Origin: Planctomycetota bacterium
GTDB lineage: Bacteria; Planctomycetota; SZUA-567; H5-PLA8
Assembly: GCA_038227875.1 (NCBI GenBank)
Contig: JBBRPR010000064.1
Span: 1 to 45,342, forward strand
Direction: 5' to 3'
DNA: 45,342 nt
Shown here: positions 3,878-18,831 of the stretch, piece by piece
Position numbering within the stretch: position 1 is the first letter of the stretch
How the letters are laid out: each line of letters starts with the position of its first letter
The notes under the pieces: generated by a model
What the model saw: only the letters and a program-made list of their open reading frames with translations
Told to the model about the DNA's origin: nothing
The model's database searches: none
Made by a program: the position numbers and the translations under genes

Positions 3878-5788
3878 TTACTTCTTTTCTGAAACTGACG
3901 TTCGAACGAACAGCGCTCCGTTTTTCGTTCCGGTGTACGCACGGCCATCGGCATCGAAAGCGACGTGCGTGATCACTCCGGGCAAGCCCTGAACCGTGGT
4001 CCACGTCACGCCATCATCGATGGACTGATAGAGCTGGCCGCGGTCGGAGACACAGAGCATGGAACCACGTACGTCGGAGACGAGCATGCGGACGCTGCAG
4101 CTATCCGGCAGCTCCACAGGCGTCACCGGTTGCGGCGGTGCGTACCGCCACAGCGTGTGCGTGTCACCGCCGTTTGCGCGCAGGCGAGCCAATAGCACGT
4201 CTCCGTTTTTCGCAAAGCACGCCGCGTAGCAGGTATCGAATTCCTTTCCTGCGACGGCTGGAGGAATTACTTTCCAATTCAAACCGCCGTCGCCGGATTC
4301 GAAAAATCCGTAGTACTCGGTCGCGGCGAGGACTCTATTGGCTTGCTCGGGCAGGGGACTGCAGACGACCCTGGTGCAGGCTGACGCATACGGGCGGCCC
4401 AGGTATTTGAAGTGCAGGCCGCCATCCAAGGATTTCCACAGCGTCGTCGAGTCGATAGTAGCGATAATCGCGCCGTTGGCGTCCGCGCACAGCGATGTTA
4501 CCAGTGGCGGCGTCTGCGTGGGTTTGTCCTGATCGAACGTGGACGCCGTCCAGCGCTGCGTCATGTGATCGCGGACCATGCAGGGGATGCCGGCATGATC
4601 GACATTTTTGAACGCGCATGCGGCTACAAGATCGCCGTCGGATGTCAGAGCTAGAGTCGTTGCGTACAACAGTGCGCCGGGGTTGTCTCCACTGATGTCT
4701 TTCCAGGTCTTGCCATCATCGGAGGACATGCAGATACCGCTGGCCGAGACCGCGGCGTAGAGCTCACCTTTTCGTCTGCACAGCAACGCCGTGATTTCCC
4801 GGCGCGGCAGACCTGAGCCGTTCAGGCGCGCCCAGTTGGGGTTCAGGCTGGCGGTTAAGTCGGTGGGCTCATTACGCCACGCGAACGCCACGGAAATATC
4901 CGCGGAAACAGCGGCGGCGGGGCCCTGACCATTTTTCGCGACGCTGCGTTCTCCGCCGGCGACAGCTACTTTTCCAAAGGTGTTGGCAAACTCGATCTGT
5001 CCCTGTTCCACCGCTACATCCGTCTGCTGGCGGTGGCGGATCACGCCGAATGCCGTGCCGGTGACGCGCACGTCGGCGTCGGGTGTCCGTACGAGAAAGC
5101 GCACCGGACGGTTGCCTGTTTGCTGCATGGAATGCGGCACCTGGAAGAACGCTTCGCCTTCGTTCAACTCCACGGTTAGCGGCGCTGAATTCGAAAAGGT
5201 GAGTTCCGTGCCTTCGCGCAGATTGAGTACTGTGCCGTCCGCCAGCGTCACTACTCCAGGCTTTGACGCGAAGCGCAGTCGTGCACCTGTGTTCCATTTC
5301 ATCGGTGCGTTCAGGTCGATCGTCGCCGTGACGTCGTGCCACTCCGCTGTTTGCCCGGCGGACAATTGAAGTGCCCCATTTACCGCGATGACGTCCACCA
5401 ATACGCTCGCAATAGGCTGCGGCTGGGGCTGGGTGGGGCTGCTCGGCTGAACCGAAGTAGATCGCCAAATGAAGAGAAGCGCGGCAACCGTAGCCACGGC
5501 GCACGCGGCCATCGCACCGTTCCGCCACGTGCTGACGCGGCGAAGACGCGATTCAACGCGGTAAGACCTCGATTCGTTCAACGCTGTCAGCGCCGACTGC
5601 GCGCCGGTGTGCAGCATCCGCAGCGTTCCATGCAGGTTCATCAGGCGCGCGAATTCCGCTCGAAGGCCGGGCTGGGACTCGAGCATCCCGCAGAATCGAG
5701 ATTCTTCGGCCGCGGACAAGTCGCCATCGAGGAAGCGGCTGGCCAGTTCGTGGAATTCGTGGGAAGGCGTCGCGGATTCGGCGGTCAT
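3878..5788 (-). CDS. FecR-family anti-sigma factor with C-terminal Asp-box beta-propeller
   Basis: N-terminal anti-sigma helix (FLDGDLSAAEESRF), TM segment, FecR motifs (LADGTVLNL, LNEGEAFFQV, FLVRTPDADVRVTGTAFGV, VAVEQGQI), four Asp-boxes (SSDDGKTW, SLDGGLHF, SGDGGLNW, SIDDGVTW). ATG 5788 overlaps the sigma stop (ATGA). Confidence 0.88.
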   Translation of the reverse strand: MTAESATPSHEFHELASRFLDGDLSAAEESRFCGMLESQPGLRAEFARLMNLHGTLRMLHTGAQSALTALNESRSYRVESRLRRVSTWRNGAMAACAVATVAALLFIWRSTSVQPSSPTQPQPQPIASVLVDVIAVNGALQLSAGQTAEWHDVTATIDLNAPMKWNTGARLRFASKPGVVTLADGTVLNLREGTELTFSNSAPLTVELNEGEAFFQVPHSMQQTGNRPVRFLVRTPDADVRVTGTAFGVIRHRQQTDVAVEQGQIEFANTFGKVAVAGGERSVAKNGQGPAAAVSADISVAFAWRNEPTDLTASLNPNWARLNGSGLPRREITALLCRRKGELYAAVSASGICMSSDDGKTWKDISGDNPGALLYATTLALTSDGDLVAACAFKNVDHAGIPCMVRDHMTQRWTASTFDQDKPTQTPPLVTSLCADANGAIIATIDSTTLWKSLDGGLHFKYLGRPYASACTRVVCSPLPEQANRVLAATEYYGFFESGDGGLNWKVIPPAVAGKEFDTCYAACFAKNGDVLLARLRANGGDTHTLWRYAPPQPVTPVELPDSCSVRMLVSDVRGSMLCVSDRGQLYQSIDDGVTWTTVQGLPGVITHVAFDADGRAYTGTKNGALFVRTSVSEKK

Positions 5789-6348
5789 GAGGCGCGACCC
5801 TCGCGCAACACGGTCCGTTTGGTGCAATCAAGTAGAGCGCGACGGAGGCGTACCAGCGTCATGTTGACTTTGGCGAGGCTCTGACCGAACTGGTCGGCCA
5901 GACTTTTCAGAGCGACTCCGTCTTCATAGCGGCGCTTGATCAGTTCGCGCTGTTCCGGTGGAAGCTTTTCGAGGCAGCTCAGCAAGGCCTGGCTTTCGCT
6001 CGACAGTTGGGGCGCATGTTCTTCCGCGGAAACGGCGGCGAATTCCAGGATGCGAAGCCGAACGCGAGCAGCGGCCTGAGATTGAAAATGGCGTGCGACC
6101 ACGTTGCGCGCAATACCAAACGCCCAGCGCAGATAAGGCTCCGACGTCCGGTAGTCGCCAAATTTCTTCCACAGGATCAACGTCACTTCCTGGAGCAGGT
6201 CTTCGGCGGTCTGGTAATCATGCACGGCTGCAAGCAGAAAGCTGAAGACGGCACGTTGCGCGGGCATGTGTACTTTTAGAAATTGCTCGCGGCCATCAGC
6301 GGTGTCGTCTGTGGAAGGTTCCATGTGCGTACTTTCAAGCTGCGTCAT
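5785..6348 (-). CDS. ECF-type sigma-70 factor
   Basis: Region 2 (AEDLLQEVTLILWKK...WAFGIARN) and region 4 (CLEKLPPEQRELIKRRY...LVRLRRALLDC); coupled to the FecR gene. Confidence 0.93.
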   Translation of the reverse strand: MTQLESTHMEPSTDDTADGREQFLKVHMPAQRAVFSFLLAAVHDYQTAEDLLQEVTLILWKKFGDYRTSEPYLRWAFGIARNVVARHFQSQAAARVRLRILEFAAVSAEEHAPQLSSESQALLSCLEKLPPEQRELIKRRYEDGVALKSLADQFGQSLAKVNMTLVRLRRALLDCTKRTVLREGRAS

Positions 6349-6477: not shown

Positions 6478-6625
6478 CTAGTTGAGCTTCCGCGCCAGAT
6501 CGAGAATGCGTTTATGCAACCGCGAGCTGATGCGCCCGGTGGTGTGGAGCGCGTAATGCACTGTCGTCTTGGAGACGCGCGATGCGCTTGGCGATGAGAT
6601 CCATGTCAGCCGACGGTCGTTTCAT
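6478..6625 (-). pseudogene. LacI-family regulator relic (N-terminal HTH only)
   Basis: Manual reading: MKRPSADMDLIAKRI, 1-nt frameshift near 6577, then VSKTTVHYALHTTGRISSRLHKRILDLARKLN*. TAG lies at the position of the conserved Tyr of L(G/N)YxPN. No sugar-binding domain follows. Confidence 0.75.
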
Positions 6626-9615: not shown

Positions 9616-11829
9616 TCATTCATTCTTTTTCGCCATCCCTGGAACTGTTACTTTCTCCATCTTTCCCGGTTGCATCAGACCGGCAATTTCTCCTTGTGAA
9701 AGTGCGTAGCTGAAAATTTTGAATTCATCAATTCCACCCTCGTAGCCGATCCCAAGCTGCGCGCTGGGATGCACTGTCTTGATGCTGGTCAGTCCGGTCT
9801 TCACCAGTACACCGTTGAGATACAATTTCGTCTGCTTGTTGTCGTAGACGACAGCGACGTGCGTCCAGGTGGTGATCGGTGTTGAATGAACCAGCACGGA
9901 TGGCTTGTGATACGGATGCGGCACATCGCTTTCGTTTTCGCAGACAGATACGCCGTTGTTGCCAACAACGAGGCCCACCCCGGCGTGGCCGGCACCGTAG
10001 AGATAGCCGTCGTACGCCACAATGCCCCAATGATACGGATAGTTCCAGACCGAACCGCTGGTGACCTCGGCAGTTTCTTGACGGGGTTGCGTCGGTTTGA
10101 CCCACAGGGTCATGGTGAAGCTGTTGGTGATGTGGGCGAAGCATGCAGGCCTTGCCGTCACATTGCCGCCCGCGAACGTGAGGGCCTTGCCGAACTTGCC
10201 GTCCTGCGCATCCGCCTCCCAATAACGGTACCCGACGTTACTGTGGCCAGAACGATCAGCGATGATCTCTGCAGCGCCTTCGTCAAACGACCAATCCAAG
10301 AGACAGCCGGACCATTTGAACGACTTTGAGCCGGCGTCCATCGCACGGCCGGCGACGTTCTGGATATTCGTGGCGTGGAGCGAATAGGCGGTTTCTGGGG
10401 TCAGTGGTGAGGTCGACAACTGCACGGTCGCACCATCGTCGAGCAGATGCGCAGCCGTGACGCGGATTCCGCCGTCCACCGCGTAGTTGGCGGCATTTTC
10501 CGCGGATTTCTGCTCGACTCTCTCACTAAAAACGACCGCGACGGAGCCTGGCGGTTCGGCGTCCACGGCATCGATTGAAAGTTTCGCCGAATCCGGAACC
10601 GCTCCGGCCACGATGCGGAACAGCCGACCTTCGCCGGGTCCAAAATCGAGCGTGAGGGTGTTGCCGACGGGCACGAGGGCCGGCATTTCGGCACCGGTTT
10701 GTTTGCCGACTTCAATCAGCCCGCTGACCTGTTTGGTGAAAAGACGCGTCTTCCCCGGGAACAGATACTCGCGGTTGACCAGCAGGACGTACGGCCGATG
10801 GGTAGCATCGCTGAACCAGCCCGCCAGAATGGGATCGCCGGACGTGGATTGAATACTGGAATCGGAACTGAATCCTTTGGTGCCGATGGGCAGCGGCAGC
10901 GAATGCGTCACGCCGAGTGACGTCATGCCTCTTAGCAGCGGGGCCAGCCTCATGATATCAGTATTCAGCTTCTTCAAGACGTCGTACTGAGGAGTCTTGG
11001 TGCCGCTGGCATCCACGGAAGCGGGTCCGATCACGTTGCTATAGGTGAAATACTGCAAACCTCTGGCGCCGTACGCCAGGTTGCTGTATTGCTGCAATGC
11101 CATCGCGCCGCCGGTTTGAAGCGGCCAGCGGTCCAGTTTGGCGGACATGGAGAAGGCCCACAGTGGCACGTTCTGCTTCAGCGCCACGCGGCGGAACACT
11201 TCCAGCTTGTTGAAAAATTCGAGATCGCAGCCCGTGCGCGTAATGGGATAGGTGTCAAACGACAGAATTTGAGGCTTCACCGCTTCCATGTACTGCGTGA
11301 TATCTTTTTCGTTTCCGCCCAGATCGGATTGATTGATGTAGATAAGATGCTTGGGATCGCGCTTTAAAATACGGTCTCTGATCGTGCGCAGTGAATCGTA
11401 GAGGGTTTTATCGGGCTCGTCGCAGACCATGAGACCCATATACGCAGGATGGTCTTTGTAGTCATCGACGATTTTATCCAATTGTACCAGGATCGCCGGA
11501 TCAAGGGTTGGCTTGATCGTGGTGGAAAATCGTTCGTCCTTAACGACGATTTTAACACCCTTGAGTTTCGCCGCATCCAAGGCGCGGAGATTTTCCTCCC
11601 GCGATCCGCTGCGATCGCCCGCGTTCACGTTGATATTCAGACCAGCGTCGACAAAGTCCTGAAGCACGGCATCTTTGAAAATTTCAAGGCGCGGACCGCA
11701 CCATGCCACATTGGGAAATTCCACGGCTTGCCATTGCGACGCGGGACTTTCCTCCGCCGAAAAGGCCGAAAGGCTGGCACACGCGGCGAGCAAGATCAAC
11801 ATCGCGAGTCGGTAGTATTCAGTTGGCAT
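9616..11829 (-). CDS. Secreted putative glycoside hydrolase (TIM-barrel-like) with Ig-like and LamG/ConA-like domains
   Basis: Signal peptide; YKDHPAYMGLMVCDEP, LSFDTYP, LAYGARGLQYFTY; VVFSERV...AANY (Ig-like); WSFDEG...FTMTLWVKP...WTHVAVVYD...LYLNG...GGIDEFKIFSYALS (LamG). Confidence 0.75.
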   Translation of the reverse strand: MPTEYYRLAMLILLAACASLSAFSAEESPASQWQAVEFPNVAWCGPRLEIFKDAVLQDFVDAGLNINVNAGDRSGSREENLRALDAAKLKGVKIVVKDERFSTTIKPTLDPAILVQLDKIVDDYKDHPAYMGLMVCDEPDKTLYDSLRTIRDRILKRDPKHLIYINQSDLGGNEKDITQYMEAVKPQILSFDTYPITRTGCDLEFFNKLEVFRRVALKQNVPLWAFSMSAKLDRWPLQTGGAMALQQYSNLAYGARGLQYFTYSNVIGPASVDASGTKTPQYDVLKKLNTDIMRLAPLLRGMTSLGVTHSLPLPIGTKGFSSDSSIQSTSGDPILAGWFSDATHRPYVLLVNREYLFPGKTRLFTKQVSGLIEVGKQTGAEMPALVPVGNTLTLDFGPGEGRLFRIVAGAVPDSAKLSIDAVDAEPPGSVAVVFSERVEQKSAENAANYAVDGGIRVTAAHLLDDGATVQLSTSPLTPETAYSLHATNIQNVAGRAMDAGSKSFKWSGCLLDWSFDEGAAEIIADRSGHSNVGYRYWEADAQDGKFGKALTFAGGNVTARPACFAHITNSFTMTLWVKPTQPRQETAEVTSGSVWNYPYHWGIVAYDGYLYGAGHAGVGLVVGNNGVSVCENESDVPHPYHKPSVLVHSTPITTWTHVAVVYDNKQTKLYLNGVLVKTGLTSIKTVHPSAQLGIGYEGGIDEFKIFSYALSQGEIAGLMQPGKMEKVTVPGMAKKNE

Positions 11830-12004
11830 GGCGGGCTCCGAGTTGCGACGACGCGCGAATCTGTACTAGTGGTGAATCACTTTATGAGCTACTAGTGATA
11901 CATACACCGCTTGCAGTCGTCAATGGTCAGATTTTAGAAGAACCTCGTTTCGAGTTCACCTGATGCTTAGTTAGGTGCTACATGGACTCCGATAATTGAT
12001 GTCA

Positions 12005-12774
12005 TTACGGCGGCTCAAAATACGCCGTCACCCGCAGTCCGAGTTTCATCGCGCTGGCGGCGGGGTGTCGAATTTGATGATCGCTTCGATGATCTTTACG
12101 TCCTGGCGTTCTTTCGCTTCGCCGGTGGAAAAACGTTTTTGGCCGGTGATCGGGCTGATCGTGTCGACGGTGCCAGTGTAACTTTTCGCATCGCTTGCGG
12201 ATTCGATCGCGATTGTCACGCGTTGGCCGGGATGCAGTTGCGCGTAGTCGGATTCGTCGACATCCGCGGCCAGGCGCAGTTGGGTCAGGTCGGCGAGTGT
12301 TACGACCGGCTGCGGGTGTAGCACGTCGATGACCTCGCCGGGGTACATGTATTTGCGGACCACCGTGCCGTTCACCTGCGCGAGCATGCGCGTTTTGTCG
12401 AGCTCGGCGCTCGCGAGTTCAACCTGCGCGCGCGCTTGTTCGACTTGAGCTTCGGCGGATTTGACTTGGAAGCTGTGGGTCGCTTTACGGCGAGCGACTT
12501 CGGATTCCGCGCTGGCGAGCATCGCGCGCGTGCGGTCTTTCTCCTCCGGACGCGAACCGGATTTCAGCGCCGTGCCGCAGACGCTGATTTCGCCGCGCGT
12601 CGGCGAGAGCACGCCGCCGATCATCGAGAGCAGCGTCGTTTTTCCGCTGCCGGACGGCCCCATGAGAATCGTGAGTTCGCCCGGCAGAATCGCGAGATTA
12701 ACGCTGCGCACGGCTAAAGATTCGCCGCCTGCGTAAAACTTTTCGACGTTGCGGATCGTGATCGTGGGTCTCAT
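12005..12774 (-). pseudogene. Deletion-fused relic: N-terminus of an ABC ATPase joined in frame to the C-terminal part of a HlyD/MFP adaptor
   Basis: ATG 12774 MRPTITIRNVEKFY...GPSGSGKT (Walker A) but no signature motif or Walker B. Near 12565 it switches to LKSGSRPEE...AQVEQARAQ...VNGTVVRKYMYPGE...LADLTQLRLAADVDESD. A frameshift near 12050 displaces the natural end MKLGLRVTAYFEPP* (TAA 12005). Confidence 0.85.
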
Positions 12775-13311
12775 GTGCGGAACACCATTCCTGGCGCCAA
12801 GCGCCGCAAACGGACAATCGAGAGCAGCGCGGCTCCAGAACAAAGCAGCGTGGTGAGCACCGCGACGCAGACGAGCAGCGCCGGCGGAATTTCGACCGCC
12901 GTCCCTGCGGCAGCCGCCGCCGCGCGAATGCCGAAACTGATCACGATGCCTAGCACCAATCCCGCGCCGCCGGTTTCGATCAGCCAGTATTTGCGCGTGC
13001 GCCAACTGAATTCGTCGCGGGTGTGGACGTCGATGTCCGGGACGCTCGCGGAAATCGCGCGACGGCCGGATTCGACGTCCGCTCCCGGTTTGACTTTGAT
13101 CAGAAAAGAAATCAACTTCGAGCCGCCGTCGGCCATCAGCCAGCCACAGCGTTCGCCGCGCCGCAGCGACGTGAAAATGTACGGCGTCGTCGTGAACGAG
13201 CGCATGCCCTTGGTGAAACCCACGGACTTTCGCGCGGTGCTCCATGATCTCGACGGAATCGGCCAACTGCGGCGCTCCCAGTTTCGCCAGCCGATGGACA
13301 TCATGGATCAT
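12771..13311 (-). pseudogene. DevC/MacB-type ABC permease relic
   Basis: ATG overlaps the upstream stop (TAATG). RLAKLG...VEIMEHRAKV, 1-nt frameshift near 13225, then VGFTKGMRSFTTTPYIFTS...EFSWRTRKYWLIETG, then a jump to the last TM region ending SIVRLRRLAPGMVFRT. About 180 codons, far shorter than a full permease. Confidence 0.8.
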
Positions 13312-15011
13312 TACCTCTGAGTTACTGCGGATAGCTGGTAGTGACCGGGCGAAATAATGCTCTGCGGGTCGAGTGCGGATTTGATGCGCGCAGTGACGTC
13401 GAAGAAGACCGACGACGACTGACCGAGTTTATCCATGCCGGAATTTCCCATGCGGTACGGGATGTATCCGGCGGCAATGAGCGCATCGAGCGCTTCGGCG
13501 TGGCACGCAGCCGCTCGACGCCGTTCTTCGGCAACCGATTTGTCGAACGCGATTGTGGTCACGGCGCAGAGCGAGCGGGCAGTGACCATCGAAAACGTCG
13601 CGAGGTAATCAAAGCCGTAGCGATTGAAGAGGGGCTCCAGCAGCGTGTTGATGCGATCGATATGATCACGCGTCATCGGCAGCACAGGCGAGAGCCACAA
13701 AAATCCAGCGTTGTGATCGAGGGGATCGGCGGAGCGAGCGGCGCTCTCCGGAGCGGCGTTGCGTACACGCCAGAGCCCGCACTGCACGCAATTGTCCGGC
13801 GACTTTCCGCGCAGCAGTTCGAAACCCAGCTCCGCTTTATTCAGAAGACGCGCGAGCGATCCACCAACGCCGATTGCGGTGAGGCCCTTGACGATGCGGC
13901 GCGCCCAGGCGAGCCGGCGATCATCGAGGAAGACGAGAATCTTCAAACCCTTCACACGGCGGAGCGCTTTTTTGACTTCCGATTCGGCCGCGGCGACTTC
14001 GGCCTTCGATCCGTATAGGGCTCCCGATCCGGTCCAGGCCGAGACGCCATGACGCGCGCGCAATTGCGTTCGCACGTCTGAATTCAGCGGCGTCTGTCCG
14101 TTCATTTCGGTCCACGGATAGGACTGCGTCATCGAGATCACGCGAAGATCGTTGCCGATGTGAATGGGCGTCGTGAGAGTTCCGCGCATCCGGAGTGGTC
14201 GGAGTGCTTCAACGAGTTCTCCAAGGTCTTCAGGATTTTTGACGCTGAAAAAAAACGCTTTGAAGCATTCTGGCCTGGGCAGCAGCCAGAACGTCATTTG
14301 CGTGACGATGCCGAGATTCGATTGCGTGAAGATGCCGTCGAGATACGGCCCCACGCCCCACTTGTAAACGCTCGCGGCTTGCGCGTTTTGAAAATGTCCG
14401 AAGCCGGTTTTCAGCACGCGGCCGTCGGCGAGCACGATTTCCATGCCGCAGGTGTGGAGAAAACGGTCGCCGTGCGGCGTGTGGCCGAAGCCACGTTCGA
14501 GCGTGTTGCCGACGATGCTCGCCGACGGCCCGGCACCCGTAGCGTCGGGCATGAATGGAAGTTTGTGATCATCAATGTAATCGGCGAGTTGGCCCTGCGT
14601 CACGCCGGGTTCGATGATCGCGTAGCCGAGATCGGCGTGAACTTCCACGATGCGGTTCATGCGTTTGAGATCGAGCAGAATCTGGCCGCTGGTCGCGGCG
14701 CAGGCATCGCCGTAACCCCAGTTTTTGCCGCCGCTGATGGGATGGAGCGGCAGCTTGAAGTTTGCGGCGATCTTGACGACGGCCTGAACTTCCTGCGTGC
14801 TGGCGGGCTGAACGATGGCGCGCGGCGACGTGCCCGTGGGAAGCGTGGTACGCGCGCGGTATTCCCGGTGCGCGAAACTGGTCTGCACGAAATCTTTGCC
14901 GACGACGGCGCGCAACTCGTCCAAGGCTCGGGAGAAGGTGTCGGGGGCGACCGCGCTTCCCACTCCGGTGCGGCCGGCGCTTGCAGGTATCGTTGATTGG
15001 GTGGCGTTCAC
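13311..15011 (-). CDS. FAD-linked oxidoreductase of the VAO/p-cresol methylhydroxylase family (FeeG/CndG-like candidate)
   Basis: PISGGKNWGYG, IEPGVTQGQL, SIVGNTLERGFG, CGMEIVLADG, GPYLDGIFTQSNLGIVT, GYIPYR, KSALDPQSIISPG; 566 aa, intact. Confidence 0.9.
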   Translation of the reverse strand: MNATQSTIPASAGRTGVGSAVAPDTFSRALDELRAVVGKDFVQTSFAHREYRARTTLPTGTSPRAIVQPASTQEVQAVVKIAANFKLPLHPISGGKNWGYGDACAATSGQILLDLKRMNRIVEVHADLGYAIIEPGVTQGQLADYIDDHKLPFMPDATGAGPSASIVGNTLERGFGHTPHGDRFLHTCGMEIVLADGRVLKTGFGHFQNAQAASVYKWGVGPYLDGIFTQSNLGIVTQMTFWLLPRPECFKAFFFSVKNPEDLGELVEALRPLRMRGTLTTPIHIGNDLRVISMTQSYPWTEMNGQTPLNSDVRTQLRARHGVSAWTGSGALYGSKAEVAAAESEVKKALRRVKGLKILVFLDDRRLAWARRIVKGLTAIGVGGSLARLLNKAELGFELLRGKSPDNCVQCGLWRVRNAAPESAARSADPLDHNAGFLWLSPVLPMTRDHIDRINTLLEPLFNRYGFDYLATFSMVTARSLCAVTTIAFDKSVAEERRRAAACHAEALDALIAAGYIPYRMGNSGMDKLGQSSSVFFDVTARIKSALDPQSIISPGHYQLSAVTQR

Positions 15012-15075
15012 GATGGGAGGATTTCCTTGTTAAATCGCCTGGCGGCGGGGAACCCGGAACGTTTTCAGCGGGCTG

Positions 15076-15921
15076 CTAACGCAGCAATCCGAAATAGCGG
15101 GCGTCGTCCGCGGACATGGGCCGATGCTGGCGCGAGAGCGACTGCGCGATGGCGGTTTCTTCAGCCTTCGAGTACGGATACCCATGCAGTCGGCGACCGT
15201 TCCGATCGCGTCCACCCGTGCAACCCGTGCTCTTAACGGCCAATTCGATTTCGGACAAATTCAGACGCAGCAACACCGCTGGCGCGCCACGGACGCGCGA
15301 GCAGCTCCGTTCCGGACCTTCCTGCGTGAAAAGCAACATCCGGCGGTAGTACTTCACGTGTGACGGATTGACTTCGATAATCAGGTCGCTGGAGTTGCGA
15401 ATGAAGCGCGAAAAGATGTAGCAGTAGTTGAACAAGGCCAACAGCAGACTCTTGGCGTCCGCGCAGGGTTCTTCAATCGCCAGACGCGTGACTTCAGCCA
15501 GACGGCAACCGCGTGCGCGAAGCGTGGCCACTTCCTGGCCGTAAATTTCGTCGCAGGGCAGGTTGTTGGCGGAATCGAACACGAGCGAAAGAGTGGCCAC
15601 CGCGTTTCCCGAGGAATCTTCGGCCAGCAGCGTCAGTGTCTGGGCGTGCGCGTCGAAGGACGATAAGCACAATTCCTGGCCTTCTTCTGATGCATAGCCG
15701 GAACGGCGATACACGCGGTGGGCGAGAGCGTAGGCGCGCTGGCGATCTTCCCGCGTCGCGGCCACGACGATGCGGCACGCGGTGGTTGCGCCGATCGCTG
15801 CCGCGGCCAGTTCGCCATCATCGCGAATCGCGCGCAACGCCTGAGACACTTTCGATAACGGCCGGGAGAGGCGGGTCTCGGGGCACAGACCCAGCACGTC
15901 CAGTTGTTTCAGCGTTGACAT
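15076..15921 (-). CDS. FeeM-like N-acyl amino acid synthase (GNAT fold)
   Basis: RBS AAGGAGG before ATG 15921; AYALAHRVYRRSGY, ATLSLVFDS..LPCDEIY, LRARGCRLAEVTRLA, DLIIEVNPSHVKYYRRMLLF, RVRGAPAVLLRLNL. Confidence 0.85.
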   Translation of the reverse strand: MSTLKQLDVLGLCPETRLSRPLSKVSQALRAIRDDGELAAAAIGATTACRIVVAATREDRQRAYALAHRVYRRSGYASEEGQELCLSSFDAHAQTLTLLAEDSSGNAVATLSLVFDSANNLPCDEIYGQEVATLRARGCRLAEVTRLAIEEPCADAKSLLLALFNYCYIFSRFIRNSSDLIIEVNPSHVKYYRRMLLFTQEGPERSCSRVRGAPAVLLRLNLSEIELAVKSTGCTGGRDRNGRRLHGYPYSKAEETAIAQSLSRQHRPMSADDARYFGLLR

Positions 15922-16055
15922 GATGGCCTCCTTTACCAAGTGAGTTTCGAAGCGACGAATTCGTATGCGCGAAGACCACTCAAGCAGCTTCCTACTCGGC
16001 GTCTTTGTACTTGCTCGAGACCGCGGGATTATTGATCCGCGCGCAACTAAAGAGT

Positions 16056-16103
16056 CGTTGCAGTGAAAAACGACCGGCTGTTGGGGCGTATTTCACTGCA
16101 ACG
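16056..16103. repeat. 17-bp inverted repeat (1 mismatch, 14-nt loop); possible terminator or REP-like element
   Basis: cgttgcagtgaaaaacg (16056-16072) and cgtatttcactgcaacg (16087-16103). Confidence 0.75.
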
Positions 16104-16881
16104 TTACGCGCGGATCATTAGGCGTGGACGGCACAACCGCCGGCTTCGCGGTCGCGCTCCAGGCCATCGCGGCTCCGGCCGCCAGCACTGAGCACGCGGC
16201 GATGGCCATCGTTCCAACGCCCACCCTCATGCGGCCATCACCGCCACTGCGCCGCGAGAGCGCCTTGCCAGCTGTGCGTCGGCCGGTGTCAATGTGCTGC
16301 AACGCCCGCGCCGCCGCACCTGGAGGGCACGTCTCGCCGGTCGTGATTGCTTCAAAAAGATTTTCGGCGTTGACCAGCGGCACAGCCGTGGCCACACCGG
16401 CTCCTGTCAGACTGGACCGCAAGCGGGCCAGGGCCTGTTGACTTTTGCTGCCAACGGCCGGCTGCGAAAGATTGAAGAGCTCGCCAATCTGACGGTGGGA
16501 CATGTTTGCGCCGAAGGAGCACGCCAGCAGTTGCGATTCCAGCTCCGGAAGTTTCCTGAGTTGGCTACGCAAAACGTCGATCAGTTCCGTCCGCTCCGCG
16601 GTGTTTTCCGTGGCGGAGTTAAATCGTCCACGTTCGATGGTCATACGGTCCTCCCGTCTTGCGCTCCGCGCCCGATTCCGTTTTAGATTCAGGCTTTTTC
16701 CCAATACGATGCAGTAGATTCAATGGGTCGCGCTGGCTTCTGCGGCGAGCGCTGAATTGCGCAGAATGTGAAAGGCCCTGTTGAACACACGTTCGTGGCG
16801 CCGTTCGGCCCGGATCAGGCGCAGACACTTCAGACCGCCTTCGGCCTGAAATTCCGATGCGGCTTTCGTATTCAGCGTCAT
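16093..16881 (-). pseudogene. Degraded paralogue of the adjacent membrane-anchored ECF sigma factor
   Basis: ORFs 16720-16923 and 16093-16704 share a frame. FNRAFHILRNSALAAE matches YNFAFRILRSSELAE; a ~17-codon deletion in region 2; TGA (16720-16722) at the Trp of GWIMSVV; LPELESQLL and AITTGETCPPG match LPELECTLL and AISTGHECPPG. Ends just after the TM helix. Confidence 0.85.
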
Positions 16882-16979
16882 GGAAGTTCCTCTGCGTGTG
16901 GGAAAAAAGTGACAACGACACACCCGCCTGCCATCGAATGGATGGCCGCACTGCTACAAAATCCGTTTCGTTTGGGTCG

Positions 16980-18431
16980 TTACTTACTCAGTGGTTCCGC
17001 CCAGGGAACTCCACGCTCTGTTCCGGTGACGACGTCCGGCAGTGCCGCCATTTTTTCGATTTGTTGCCCGGGATTCCGCAGTGCGCTCGCCTGCTCCTCT
17101 GCCGTAAAATCCCGGACCACGACTTTCTGGATCACCACGTTCTTGAGACTCAAACAGATCTGATCGAAGGGACACGAGTCGTCGAATTTTCGGGCACTGA
17201 GCAGCTTCTCGTCGATGAATTGCAAGGCACACGCGTCTTTGAAATAGACACGGATTTCAAAACCGTTCGGGTTGGTGTATGGCGTTTTAAACTTCCAGAA
17301 CTGATAGGGAGGAAAAGATTCGCCCTCGCACCACAATGCGTCAATTCGCGCCTCGTCCAGGGTCTCCTGAACACTCAGAATGACGACACAGGGCCGCTTG
17401 GGCAATGTGATTGGGACTTTCGCCACGACGATGCCCGCCGCCGCCATCGCGCCGGTTTGTGTGCCGGTACCGGGCCGCCATTTCCAATCGCCCCACACGG
17501 CAAAGTTTCCAGCATAGCCGTTTGTGAAATCCCATTTTTCAAAGAGCGGCTTGTTCGCCGGCGCAATAATCGGTGCGACAACAAGTGGCATGCTGGATTT
17601 CCAGGGCTGCCAGAGGGCGGCTCCAGCGACAACGGCCGCAGCAAAAACGCCCGCGATCGGCAGCAGCGCCATCCCCGATTTCTGGATCGCCAGGCTTTTC
17701 GTGCGCGTTGACGCTTTGGCGAGCTGCGAACCGGGATTCATGGCGCGGCTGACGATCCGGTCGCGCATGCCCGGCGGGCATTCGTGGCCGGTGGAGATGG
17801 CCTTGAACAGGGACTCGGCATCGAGCACCGGCACAAAGCTGGCGACAGCGCCTGCACCGGCCAGTTTGGTCCGCAGGCGTTGCAGTGCGGCGTTGATCTT
17901 CTGCGAGACGGCTTGTTGCGAGAGGCCGACCATGTCGCCGATCTTCTGGTGTGACAAACTTGAGCCGTAACAATAGAGCAGTAGCGTACATTCTAGCTCC
18001 GGAAGTTGATCGATCTGATCGCGTAACTTCTCGATCAACTCTTCGCCTGCGACAATCTCGTCGATGGCGCCGCCTTCCTTGCTCTGCATCTTCGCCATAC
18101 GTTCCACTCGCTTTGCGCTTTGAGCGCGGCTGCGTTTCAAGTCGATGCTTTTGTGTGCCACGACACTCATGATCCAGCCGCGGGCTTGAGTGCCTGACGA
18201 AAGTGATTTTCGCGATTGCCAGAGGGAGAGTAGTGCTTCCTGGACAGCGTCCTCCGCCAGCTCGGAGCTGCGCAGGATGCGAAACGCAAAATTGTAGGAG
18301 GACTTGTGGTAGCGGTCGCAGAGCTCCGTGAACGCCGCGCCGTCGCCGTCTTTGGCCATGGCCGCAAGCAAGGATTGGTCGCTCTGTTCCATAGTCGCGA
18401 GTTTATCCGGTTCCACTGATGCATGTTGCAC
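16980..18431 (-). CDS. ECF sigma-70 factor with long C-terminal extension (TM helix plus extracytoplasmic domain)
   Basis: SDQSLL...DGAAFTELCDRY...LAEDAVQEALL (region 2), IDQLPELE...SHQKIGDMVGLSQQAV (region 4), TM LPIAGVFAAAVVAGAALW. Alternative start ATG 18392. Confidence 0.88.
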   Translation of the reverse strand: MQHASVEPDKLATMEQSDQSLLAAMAKDGDGAAFTELCDRYHKSSYNFAFRILRSSELAEDAVQEALLSLWQSRKSLSSGTQARGWIMSVVAHKSIDLKRSRAQSAKRVERMAKMQSKEGGAIDEIVAGEELIEKLRDQIDQLPELECTLLLYCYGSSLSHQKIGDMVGLSQQAVSQKINAALQRLRTKLAGAGAVASFVPVLDAESLFKAISTGHECPPGMRDRIVSRAMNPGSQLAKASTRTKSLAIQKSGMALLPIAGVFAAAVVAGAALWQPWKSSMPLVVAPIIAPANKPLFEKWDFTNGYAGNFAVWGDWKWRPGTGTQTGAMAAAGIVVAKVPITLPKRPCVVILSVQETLDEARIDALWCEGESFPPYQFWKFKTPYTNPNGFEIRVYFKDACALQFIDEKLLSARKFDDSCPFDQICLSLKNVVIQKVVVRDFTAEEQASALRNPGQQIEKMAALPDVVTGTERGVPWAEPLSK

Positions 18432-18831
18432 TTCGGTCTATCTTGATCGTCCATTCATAAATCGGAACAGGCGCTGCGATCACAAGCAGATTTTAGAATT
18501 ATTTTATCGATTTCTGGCGCTCATTCACACGCTTGCTCTTCGTCGTGCCGCTCTTCCCTTCCTTCAGGATTCTTGAACCTCACGCATCGCGTCGTCGTAG
18601 AATACGTGCGGCGCCGGCTGCAGATAAACAACGGAAGCCATGAAATTTATCACGGCCATCTGCTGACACGCCGGAAAAATAACCGAATTCCACGACAGCG
18701 AAGTGGATCCGTGGTTGCGATGCCACCAATTTTACGACAAATTGTGGAAAGAGGTCCGCACCGATGTCTTCGTTTATTATGATCAGTAAGTTCAAGTGAA
18801 GGCAGGGCTTGGCAGCCCTTTTCGTAATTTC

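Follow-up and report, generated by a model that had tools for sequence, protein, structure and literature searches.

Among the closest described counterparts of the locus examined here is the fee cluster, which was reportedly recovered from soil environmental DNA by Brady et al. in 2002. Our subject is a pair of genes on a 45,342-nt contig of a Planctomycetota bacterium (JBBRPR010000064.1, assembly GCA_038227875.1), which is called the window below. Like the fee cluster with FeeM and FeeG (PMC11959600, PMC8762209, PMC11350588), the window brings together a FeeM-family synthase of N-acyl amino acids and a flavoprotein of the 4-phenol-oxidising VAO/PCMH subgroup. The expected chemistry is alike as well: by analogy, an N-acyl-tyrosine would be formed and then oxidatively decarboxylated to an enamide. 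The fee cluster has a dedicated acyl carrier protein (ACP) and fatty-acid-activating functions (PMC11959600), whereas only two biosynthetic genes were present in the window, and the stretch between 12046 and 18431 leaves no space for others, an ACP gene included (small open reading frames, ORFs, were scanned inside the cassette only). Unlike fee, the window pair is part of a cassette whose other members are a MacB-type exporter and a membrane-anchored sigma factor of the extracytoplasmic function (ECF) type. The window synthase was distant from FeeM (45 bits), and FeeG was likened by description only.

FeeG and CndG are both placed in the 4-phenol-oxidising subgroup (PMC11350588, section 5.2.1). 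In their mechanism a benzylic hydride passes to the flavin N5, with a p-quinone methide as the electron sink, and the reaction ends with decarboxylation to the hydroxystyryl product and reoxidation of the flavin by O2; no crystal structure is reported for this oxidase class (PMC11350588). CndG, from chondrochloren biosynthesis in Chondromyces crocatus, is a flavin adenine dinucleotide (FAD) enzyme of the same subgroup as the window flavoprotein and oxidatively decarboxylates an N-acylated tyrosine via the quinone methide (PMC11350588). Its substrate comes from a polyketide synthase/non-ribosomal peptide synthetase (PKS/NRPS) line, not from a FeeM-type synthase, and CndG was compared by description only. 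HyeB of the hyellamide cluster in Hyella patelloides is a FeeG/CndG homologue proposed to form the enamide of an N-acyl-tyrosine derivative. Like the window, the hyellamide cluster has no dedicated ACP, but its acyltransferase HyeC belongs to the SGNH/GDSL family, glycosyl- and acetyltransferases follow, and the host is a cyanobacterium (PMC11959600).

Stieleriacine, thalassotalic acid, kyonggic acid and tyrazolone involve a TyzC-like nitroreductase together with ThiF (PMC12479983, PMC10404671). These clusters resemble the window in coupling an N-acyl-tyrosine synthase to a subsequent O2-dependent flavin enzyme that acts on the tyrosine side chain, and Stieleria is planctomycetal. They differ in that a nitroreductase-superfamily oxidase and a ThiF-type cyclase lead to dehydrotyrosines and oxazolones, whereas the window has a VAO/PCMH-type enzyme and no ThiF. 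The catabolic 4-phenol enzymes PCMH (PchF/PchC), EUGH, VAO, EUGO, VAD and nsVAO have in common with the window flavoprotein the fold, the FAD_binding_4 domain, the Tyr/Tyr/Arg set for the phenolate and the expected abstraction of a benzylic hydride. Set against these enzymes, the window flavoprotein has no cytochrome c or aldehyde dehydrogenase, carries a Gly-Ala pair at the flavin N5 and no flavin-linking His, contains an extra unaligned segment (approximately residues 360–434) and falls into a separate clade.

We consider it probable that the stretch from 15921 to 13311 is a fee-type two-enzyme unit, in which an N-acyl-tyrosine would be made and then oxidised via a quinone methide and, least certainly, decarboxylated to an enamide. 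Both enzyme genes were intact and under purifying selection. In a Nei–Gojobori comparison with their paralogues on contig C102 of the same genome, the ratio of non-synonymous to synonymous divergence (dN/dS) was 0.13 for the synthase (dS = 1.29) and 0.14 for the flavoprotein (dS = 1.01), values that are rough because dS was near saturation.

The synthase ORF spanned 15939..15076, with the ATG at 15921 as the likely start of a 281-amino-acid protein. An initial annotation, made from the letters of the window alone, had read it as an intact FeeM-like gene with a strong ribosome-binding site and suggested a search with a FeeM profile. Both parts of this reading held: the protein matched Pfam PF21926 (FeeM) over profile positions 2–158 of 158 (E = 6.4e-45; 153.2 bits, cut-off 27), and AAGGAGG precedes the ATG. 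GGAGG- or AAGGA-type sites were found at the equivalent position ahead of several synthase paralogues. Residues 54–227 also matched the solved FeeM structure 2g0b (E = 5.4e-11, 45 bits), and 3206 relatives were found in a representative library at E ≤ 0.001. The acidic residue of the LAEV motif (E130), which aligned with FeeM, was nearly invariant in 27 relatives. E130 is a putative catalytic residue. Public FeeM proteins also occur as fusions with a glycosyltransferase (P0193, P0201, P0213, P0234, P0183), a B12-binding radical-SAM domain (P0221, P0232, P0248), a YgaP-like membrane domain (P0174) or a second FeeM (P0162), and at L051 (4815–5996) FeeM was fused to a cyclic-nucleotide-binding (cNMP) domain.

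The flavoprotein gene lay 64 nt from the synthase gene and encoded 566 amino acids from a GTG start to a TAA stop (13313–13311). It matched PF01565 (FAD_binding_4; E = 4.7e-29, 101 bits), and VAO/PCMH 4-phenol enzymes made up the whole of its 33 best matches among solved structures (E = 4e-95 to 2.5e-57), including nsVAO (9fge, 3.7e-95), PCMH (1dii, 2.9e-89), EUGO (5fxd, 3.5e-70) and VAO (1ahu, 2.4e-58). The description of this gene as an intact VAO/PCMH-family flavoprotein with GxNxGYG and PYR motifs was thus accurate. The motifs read G95-K-N97-W-G99-Y100-G and P518-Y519-R520; G95, N97, W98, G99, Y100, Y519 and R520 were invariant in 18 of 18 aligned relatives. Across a clade of 85 members, Y100, Y519 and R520 were kept in 82, 84 and 84, respectively, and all three were kept in 4/4 catabolic controls. 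The Tyr and Arg sites aligned to the GYG and YR of nsVAO. Their phenolate-binding counterparts in VAO are presumably Tyr108, Tyr503 and Arg504.

The surroundings of the flavin differed from those of the catabolic relatives. Gly159-Ala160 formed the pair at the flavin N5, and Phe437 occupied the histidyl-FAD site. Within the clade, Gly was first in 83/85 rows and was followed by Ala, Ser or Thr, and the flavin-linking column held His in 0/85 rows. The signature sites and enzyme classes are published in Table 1 of PMC7617285, and our catabolic controls matched them (the Rhodococcus protein L115, D-L with His; L113, A-P; L116, T-V with Leu). The window protein had neither the Asp/Glu-Leu pair and flavin-linking His of VAO/EUGO-type oxidases nor the Ala/Thr and Pro/Ile of PCMH/EUGH. 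A conserved segment of about 75 residues (approximately 360–434) failed to align with the solved enzymes; no invariant Tyr was found in this stretch of the flavoprotein alignment, in which the flavin-linking Tyr site itself could not be aligned. Since the flavin-linking His is missing, FAD is probably bound non-covalently, as it is in nsVAO (9FFK and 9FGE; PMC7617285). A predicted complex of synthase and flavoprotein (score 0.01, mark 0.32) bore neither way on their association.

The source genome (9.34 Mb, 176 contigs, 88% complete) contained 19 FeeM matches above the cut-off and five VAO-type flavoprotein genes, besides one unrelated FAD oxidase (E = 1e-16). Each of the five VAO-type genes began 183–315 nt past a same-strand FeeM domain, a recurrence that excludes chance adjacency. 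In a FeeM tree of 45 rows, their partner synthases all fell within a single clade of seven rows (SH-aLRT 98; Shimodaira–Hasegawa-like approximate likelihood-ratio test). The five flavoproteins themselves spanned two deep branches, the window protein being 37% identical to the copies on C2 and C49. In the related genomes G004 and G012, 5/6 flavoprotein copies lay at most 4.2 kb from a FeeM gene and 4/6 at most 0.8 kb; the sixth was on a contig without FeeM. The origin in a planctomycete, which had been guessed from the sequence, fits the named relatives.

The pairing also recurred in other phyla. A scan of one genome per species yielded 578 relatives of the flavoprotein, of which the best 80 loci were analysed (genes were called as greedy ORFs, and several loci stop at contig edges). 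An in-house FeeM profile matched within 6 kb of the flavoprotein in 35/80 loci, 32 of them at E ≤ 1e-30. The synthase was directly upstream on the same strand in 23 of these 32, and at one of the 23 (L034) it shared the open frame of the flavoprotein. Pfam added a FeeM at L051, and three weak matches were NasY-type synthases (PF13444), two of which were tested and were both above the TIGR03694 cut-off. In total, a recognisable N-acyl amino acid synthase lay within 6 kb in 36/80 loci. Hosts of paired loci included Planctomycetia, Phycisphaerae, Oxalobacteraceae (Massilia and kin), Pseudomonadales, Desulfovibrionales and Syntrophobacterales. Natural FeeM–flavoprotein (PF21926–PF01565) fusions were found three times (P0041, 812 amino acids; P0042, 822 amino acids; L034). 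The suggested survey of gene neighbourhoods thus showed a conserved pair. The proposal that the two enzymes act together was upheld by the recurrence of the pair in the genome (5/5 paralogues), in its relatives and across phyla (36/80 loci), by the three fusions and by the separation from catabolic homologues described below; the flavoprotein is, in genomic terms, the partner of a synthase expected to make an N-acylated tyrosine.

FeeM-then-flavoprotein pairs were common in Oxalobacteraceae, including Massilia, Rugamonas and Pseudoduganella (L056, L062, L067, L068, L070, L076, L078, L083, L089, L090, L091, L096, L100, L101). The producers of kyonggic acid belong to this same family, and the clusters published for them rely on ThiF with a nitroreductase instead. 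Strains with the pair may make a second, enamide-type acyl-tyrosine. In 13 loci of Bryobacterales/Acidobacteria, a conserved gene of 273–327 amino acids and of no clear family was directly upstream of the flavoprotein (L069, L073, L081, L086, L088, L093, L094, L095, L098, L104, L107, L112, L063). It matched Pfam FeeM below the cut-off in two cases, NCBIfam in 0/4, and FeeM by hhalign with 18% probability (E = 0.0013); their resemblance to FeeM is doubtful, and these genes were left out of the synthase count. The acidobacterial loci were often beside PEP-CTERM proteins, fatty-acid desaturases or glycosyltransferases. A flavoprotein homologue in a 9.9-Mb genome of the G043 phylum (L157, G413:C1:9506000-9525900) had as its flanking genes those for a single-module NRPS (C-A-T-TE) and a PPDK_N ATP-binding protein; the context, which has no FeeM, is CndG-like, and identity as CndG was not assigned.

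Table 1. Features of the cassette in the window and contigs of the other FeeM loci in the source genome.
Feature	Position	Strand	Basis or remark
FeeM-family N-acyl amino acid synthase gene	15076..15921	(-)	Pfam FeeM, solved FeeM 2g0b
Shine-Dalgarno AAGGAGG	15927..15933	(-)	5 nt upstream of synthase ATG; read from sequence
VAO/PCMH-type 4-phenol-oxidising flavoprotein gene, putative N-acyl-tyrosine oxidase	13311..15011	(-)	PF01565, solved relatives
Relic of the cognate membrane-anchored ECF sigma factor gene	16084..16806	(-)	tblastn, 490-aa C102 sigma factor
Intact membrane-anchored ECF-type sigma factor, 483 aa	16980..18431	(-)	Sigma70_r2 + r4
MacB/DevC-type ABC permease relic, frameshifted, with internal deletions	12774..13323	(-)	tblastn, intact 381-aa L030 permease
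ABC ATPase relic, N-terminal third with P-loop	12565..12822	(-)	tblastn, intact 271-aa L030 ATPase
Membrane-fusion (HlyD/DevB-type) relic, C-terminal part	12046..12570	(-)	tblastn, 460-aa L017 protein
18 further FeeM loci (L015-L032)	C83, C67, C9, C27, C102, C88, C49 (two), C89, C97, C105, C17, C2, C13 (two), C15, C95, C51		

The window locus is a decayed duplicate of a larger cassette that comprises an ECF sigma factor, the synthase, the oxidase and a MacB-type tripartite exporter; the cognate sigma factor and the exporter of this copy are pseudogenes (Table 1). The initial annotation had missed both the sigma relic and the place of the locus as one decayed copy among 19 synthase loci. The DNA of synthase and flavoprotein (15902–13336) was 75% identical to contig C102 (locus L019), and 16810–16249 matched the sigma gene that heads the C102 duplicate, with 75% DNA identity to positions 6542–7036 of L019. 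The sigma relic corresponded to residues 39–301 of the C102 sigma factor (56% identity). It contained an in-frame stop and lacked 19 residues of region 2 as well as the N-terminus and the periplasmic domain. In the 203-amino-acid ORF between the intact sigma gene and the synthase, only Sigma70_r4 was recognisable.

The relics downstream of the flavoprotein were traced with intact exporter proteins of L030 and L017, two further FeeM loci in the source genome, and their source was a permease–ATPase–membrane-fusion operon resembling those intact pumps and, more generally, ATP-binding cassette (ABC) exporters of the MacAB/DevBCA type. All three genes were broken in the window: only fragments were found in place of a complete tripartite exporter with permease, ATPase (Walker B and signature motif included) and membrane-fusion protein. 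The permease was left as residues 1–14 (frame -1), 135–175 (frame -3) and 166–381, the last compressed into only 152 codons, and gave a weak DevC match (TIGR01185). The ATPase remnant covered residues 8–93 of 271 (64% identity) and a part of PF00005 (profile positions 2–98 of 137). The membrane-fusion remnant, at 12570–12049, covered residues 273–445 of 460 (65% identity) and matched HlyD_D23 and HlyD_3, with TIGR01730 and TIGR02971 below the cut-off. Since the ATPase and membrane-fusion pieces are joined in frame, one deletion took the remainder of both genes. A permease-frame ATGATG lay at 13304, 6 nt past the flavoprotein TAA, so that the packing is tight, and the exporter is dead, both as had been proposed. 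A 421-amino-acid ORF (13311..12046) was rejected as a true chimeric protein: its first 180 residues showed no homology, and a different frame of the same stretch holds the permease relic. Given the lesions in the exporter relics, this ORF is an accident.

The intact sigma factor is a different paralogue from the relic, with 33% identity to the C102 sigma factor, and lies 1.06 kb upstream of the synthase on the same strand. It is one of a family of 18 paralogues in the genome, in which a CPP motif is conserved ahead of the membrane segment. In an AlphaFold model (mean pLDDT, the predicted local distance difference test, 77.6), the helical part matched SigW, SigL, CnrH and AlgU, and residues 297–472 formed a confident beta-sandwich like galectin/ConA lectin folds (1oq1, 2a6y, 3zr5). 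This protein is a possible present regulator of the synthase–flavoprotein pair. A scan of 11800–18700 for consensus sigma-70 promoters and terminators gave nothing above the shuffled expectation, and no common motif emerged from shared promoter k-mers ahead of 17 FeeM and 16 sigma genes, some of whose starts were ORF starts only.

Judging from family membership, the synthase would acylate the amino group of L-tyrosine, or of a closely related 4-hydroxyphenyl amino acid, with a long fatty acyl chain taken from an acyl-ACP (or acyl-CoA) that primary metabolism supplies. The mechanism of the family, together with the conserved pairing, suggests that Tyr100, Tyr519 and Arg520 of the flavoprotein would then bind the phenolate, and that hydride transfer from the benzylic carbon to FAD would give the p-quinone methide. 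In the least certain step, the methide would lose CO2 to yield an N-acyl-4-hydroxystyrylamine enamide, by analogy with FeeG and CndG. Addition of water is disfavoured because the acidic residue at N5 is missing. Expression, if any, could proceed via the neighbouring intact sigma paralogue (16980–18431) or another promoter, and export via a pump encoded elsewhere.

The flavoprotein might instead be an oxidoreductase for the catabolism of 4-alkylphenols, p-cresol or eugenol, placed next to FeeM without a common pathway, and its relatives are indeed auto-annotated as '4-cresol dehydrogenase (hydroxylating)', its best solved relatives being catabolic enzymes. We regard this as very improbable. Four plasmid homologues (29–36% identity by tblastn) were fetched. 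A cytochrome c gene was directly upstream in two (L113, L116), the former also with an aldehyde dehydrogenase; of the other two, one had an aldehyde dehydrogenase and a UbiX/UbiD-type decarboxylase, and the Rhodococcus one had an aldehyde dehydrogenase. At the window, neither the adjacent c-type cytochrome nor the downstream aldehyde dehydrogenase of PchF/PchC and EUGH was found: no ORF of at least 60 amino acids with CxxCH occurred in 11800–16200, and the neighbours of the flavoprotein were FeeM and the exporter relic. In an 89-row tree, the four plasmid homologues were split from the 85 other proteins with an SH-aLRT of 100 (a quick search under LG+G4 with SH-aLRT support only, as for all trees here; the partial L039 and L075, with one stop, were omitted, and FeeG, CndG and HyeB were not among the rows). 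The grouping with catabolic enzymes that the initial annotation had named as fatal to its reading was not seen with these plasmid homologues. The window protein fell into a 7-row clade in which every member was paired with FeeM and which included the three fusions. The split was repeated with 101 rows (100 distinct), and L157 was placed inside the non-catabolic clade. No protein named FeeG, CndG or HyeB was among the 120 flavoprotein matches listed. The differing flavin-site signature, the 5/5 adjacency in the genome and the natural fusions likewise argue against a catabolic role.

A different outcome of the same genes and the same first step would be a methide resolved without decarboxylation, either to an N-acyl-2,3-dehydrotyrosine if the alpha proton is lost or to a beta-hydroxy or beta-keto derivative if water is added. 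Planctomycetes do produce N-acyl dehydrotyrosines, the stieleriacines (PMC12479983), VAO-family enzymes can dehydrogenate or hydroxylate 4-alkylphenols (Scheme 1 legend, PMC7617285), and no residue we looked at decides the outcome. The double bond of the known clusters, however, is assigned to the TyzC-like nitroreductase and ThiF (PMC12479983, PMC10404671), and since a ThiF/nitroreductase set adjoins seven other FeeM genes in the genome, a second route to dehydrotyrosine would be redundant. The flavin site moreover has no Asp/Glu of the water-adding oxidases, and the sole characterised VAO-type enzymes that oxidise N-acyl-tyrosines decarboxylate them (PMC11350588); on these grounds such a product seems unlikely. 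It is more unlikely still that the pair is a dying duplicate, no longer expressed or useful, whose two frames are merely not yet broken. Such a copy would fit the facts that two of the cassette's four functional parts have become pseudogenes, that C102 carries an intact duplicate together with its own sigma factor and that the promoter scan was negative. Three DNA sequencing runs, all of one study and one of them possibly the source sample, were listed for the sequence, and no RNA run. Against it stand two complete frames (281 and 566 amino acids) amid relics with deletions, frameshifts and a stop, dN/dS of 0.13–0.14 across about 25% DNA divergence, a strong Shine-Dalgarno sequence, the retention of all family-invariant residues, and the presence, immediately upstream in the same orientation, of an intact sigma factor from the same family.

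Several points weigh against the fee-type reading. The place of the flavoprotein in the published oxidative-decarboxylase ('OxD', PMC7617285) clade is assigned from context, not from a tree that contains the type members. The sequence fixes neither tyrosine as the substrate nor decarboxylation as the outcome, and no examined residue decides between decarboxylation and alpha-deprotonation of the methide. No recognised synthase was present in 44/80 of the related loci. In seven loci from Hydrogenedentota, Nitrospiraceae and an unclassified metagenome-assembled genome, a CbiX-type chelatase gene was directly upstream of the flavoprotein (L038, L040, L042, L043, L055, L066, L108); these flavoproteins form a derived subclade with no synthase nearby, and an AhpC/TSA peroxiredoxin gene was downstream in six loci of this subclade, including L042, L048, L049, L055 and L066. 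In the phylum of G043, where 18 of the 401 genomes searched had a flavoprotein match at E ≤ 1e-60, FeeM was near the flavoprotein in 0/8 fetched loci. Since synthase-free loci exist, members of the flavoprotein clade also work in other contexts. As for the window copy, dS of about 1.0–1.3, near saturation, makes recent silencing possible, and the loss of the cognate sigma factor and exporter may suggest a copy heading for loss.

The arrangement of a sigma factor and a synthase was not peculiar to the window. Sigma factors at FeeM loci were 479–536 amino acids long; besides regions 2 and 4 they had the CPP motif, a membrane segment and the same type of C-terminal domain. In the source genome (G000), 16/19 FeeM genes had such a gene on the same strand within 1.5 kb, upstream in 15; the profile used for these counts was trained on these same sigma factors. 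In genomes of the same family, the sigma factor was near FeeM in 15/22 (G004), 1/1 (G001), 1/1 (G002) and 0/2 cases (G012). In another family of the class, no window-type sigma factor was near FeeM (G021, 0/16; G028, 0/10), and FeeM was often inside open frames of 600–1200 amino acids; FeeM matches there amounted to 47 rows in G021, where some domains were split over two rows, and 13 in G028. We refer to the arrangement as the sigma-headed FeeM cassette, a grouping defined here and not a published family; the window belongs to it through its intact 483-amino-acid sigma factor, the cognate copy being a relic. Tailoring genes varied across cassettes and comprised VAO-type oxidases (5), ThiF with or without a nitroreductase (7), glycosyltransferase, methyltransferase, and beta-eliminating lyase or aminotransferase, and intact MacB-type pumps followed some. 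Short sigma fragments were also seen right beside the FeeM gene at L016, L020, L021 and L022.

A tentative and somewhat doubtful extension is that self-contained sigma–synthase–tailoring–pump circuits form a family that is specific to this lineage and evolves by birth and death, with the pair as one decaying member. The outward lectin-like domain seen in the model of the membrane-anchored sigma factor might sense an outside cue, perhaps a glycan, whereupon the sigma factor would activate the FeeM synthase of its circuit along with a dedicated pump and a tailoring enzyme that differs between circuits. A single planctomycete would then hold some 16–19 cue-specific channels for different exported acyl-amino-acid lipids, and the window circuit would have been rewired or orphaned after the loss of its own sensor and pump. 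If true, this would amount to a combinatorial repertoire for chemical signalling or chemical warfare, with a logic like that of multiplied LuxR/LuxI pairs and built from sigma factors.

The initial annotation had also put the locus forward as an undescribed system. For the chemistry this did not hold, as it is fee-like and widespread, the minimal synthase–oxidase pair occurring in Planctomycetota, Oxalobacteraceae, Desulfovibrionales, Syntrophobacterales and others. Wiring by sigma factors and expansion, in contrast, appear undescribed. We found no account of FeeM and VAO-type pairs in planctomycetes in the literature, nor a description of sigma-linked synthase cassettes, the supplements on ECF classification being covered only partly; the string 'acyl' does not occur in the main texts of two papers of the ECF literature (PMC7826278, PMC7671368), and PMC11148156 makes no mention of CndG, FeeG or oxidative decarboxylases. 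The 19 synthase loci are concrete candidates for the largely unknown small-molecule repertoire of planctomycetes. The Thr-Gly-Ala/Ser signature without His separates the flavoprotein clade from its lignin- and cresol-degrading relatives and could serve to correct '4-cresol dehydrogenase' labels. The window itself documents turnover, in a cassette that was duplicated, lost its sensor and pump and kept its enzymes.

Elsewhere in the window, a large polysaccharide biosynthesis region extended over 18832–41828, with a G+C content of 46–57% compared with approximately 61% in the cassette. Its genes encoded a nucleotidyl transferase, a GHMP kinase, a UDP-glucose dehydrogenase, glycosyltransferases, an ABC-2 (Wzm/Wzt-like) transporter, Wzz-like and NusG-like proteins, an initiating sugar transferase, a DegT aminotransferase and two Wzy_C proteins. 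On the minus strand at 3878–6348, a classical ECF sigma factor of 187 amino acids was followed by a FecR-domain protein of 649 amino acids, an ordinary sigma/anti-sigma pair unrelated to the cassette.

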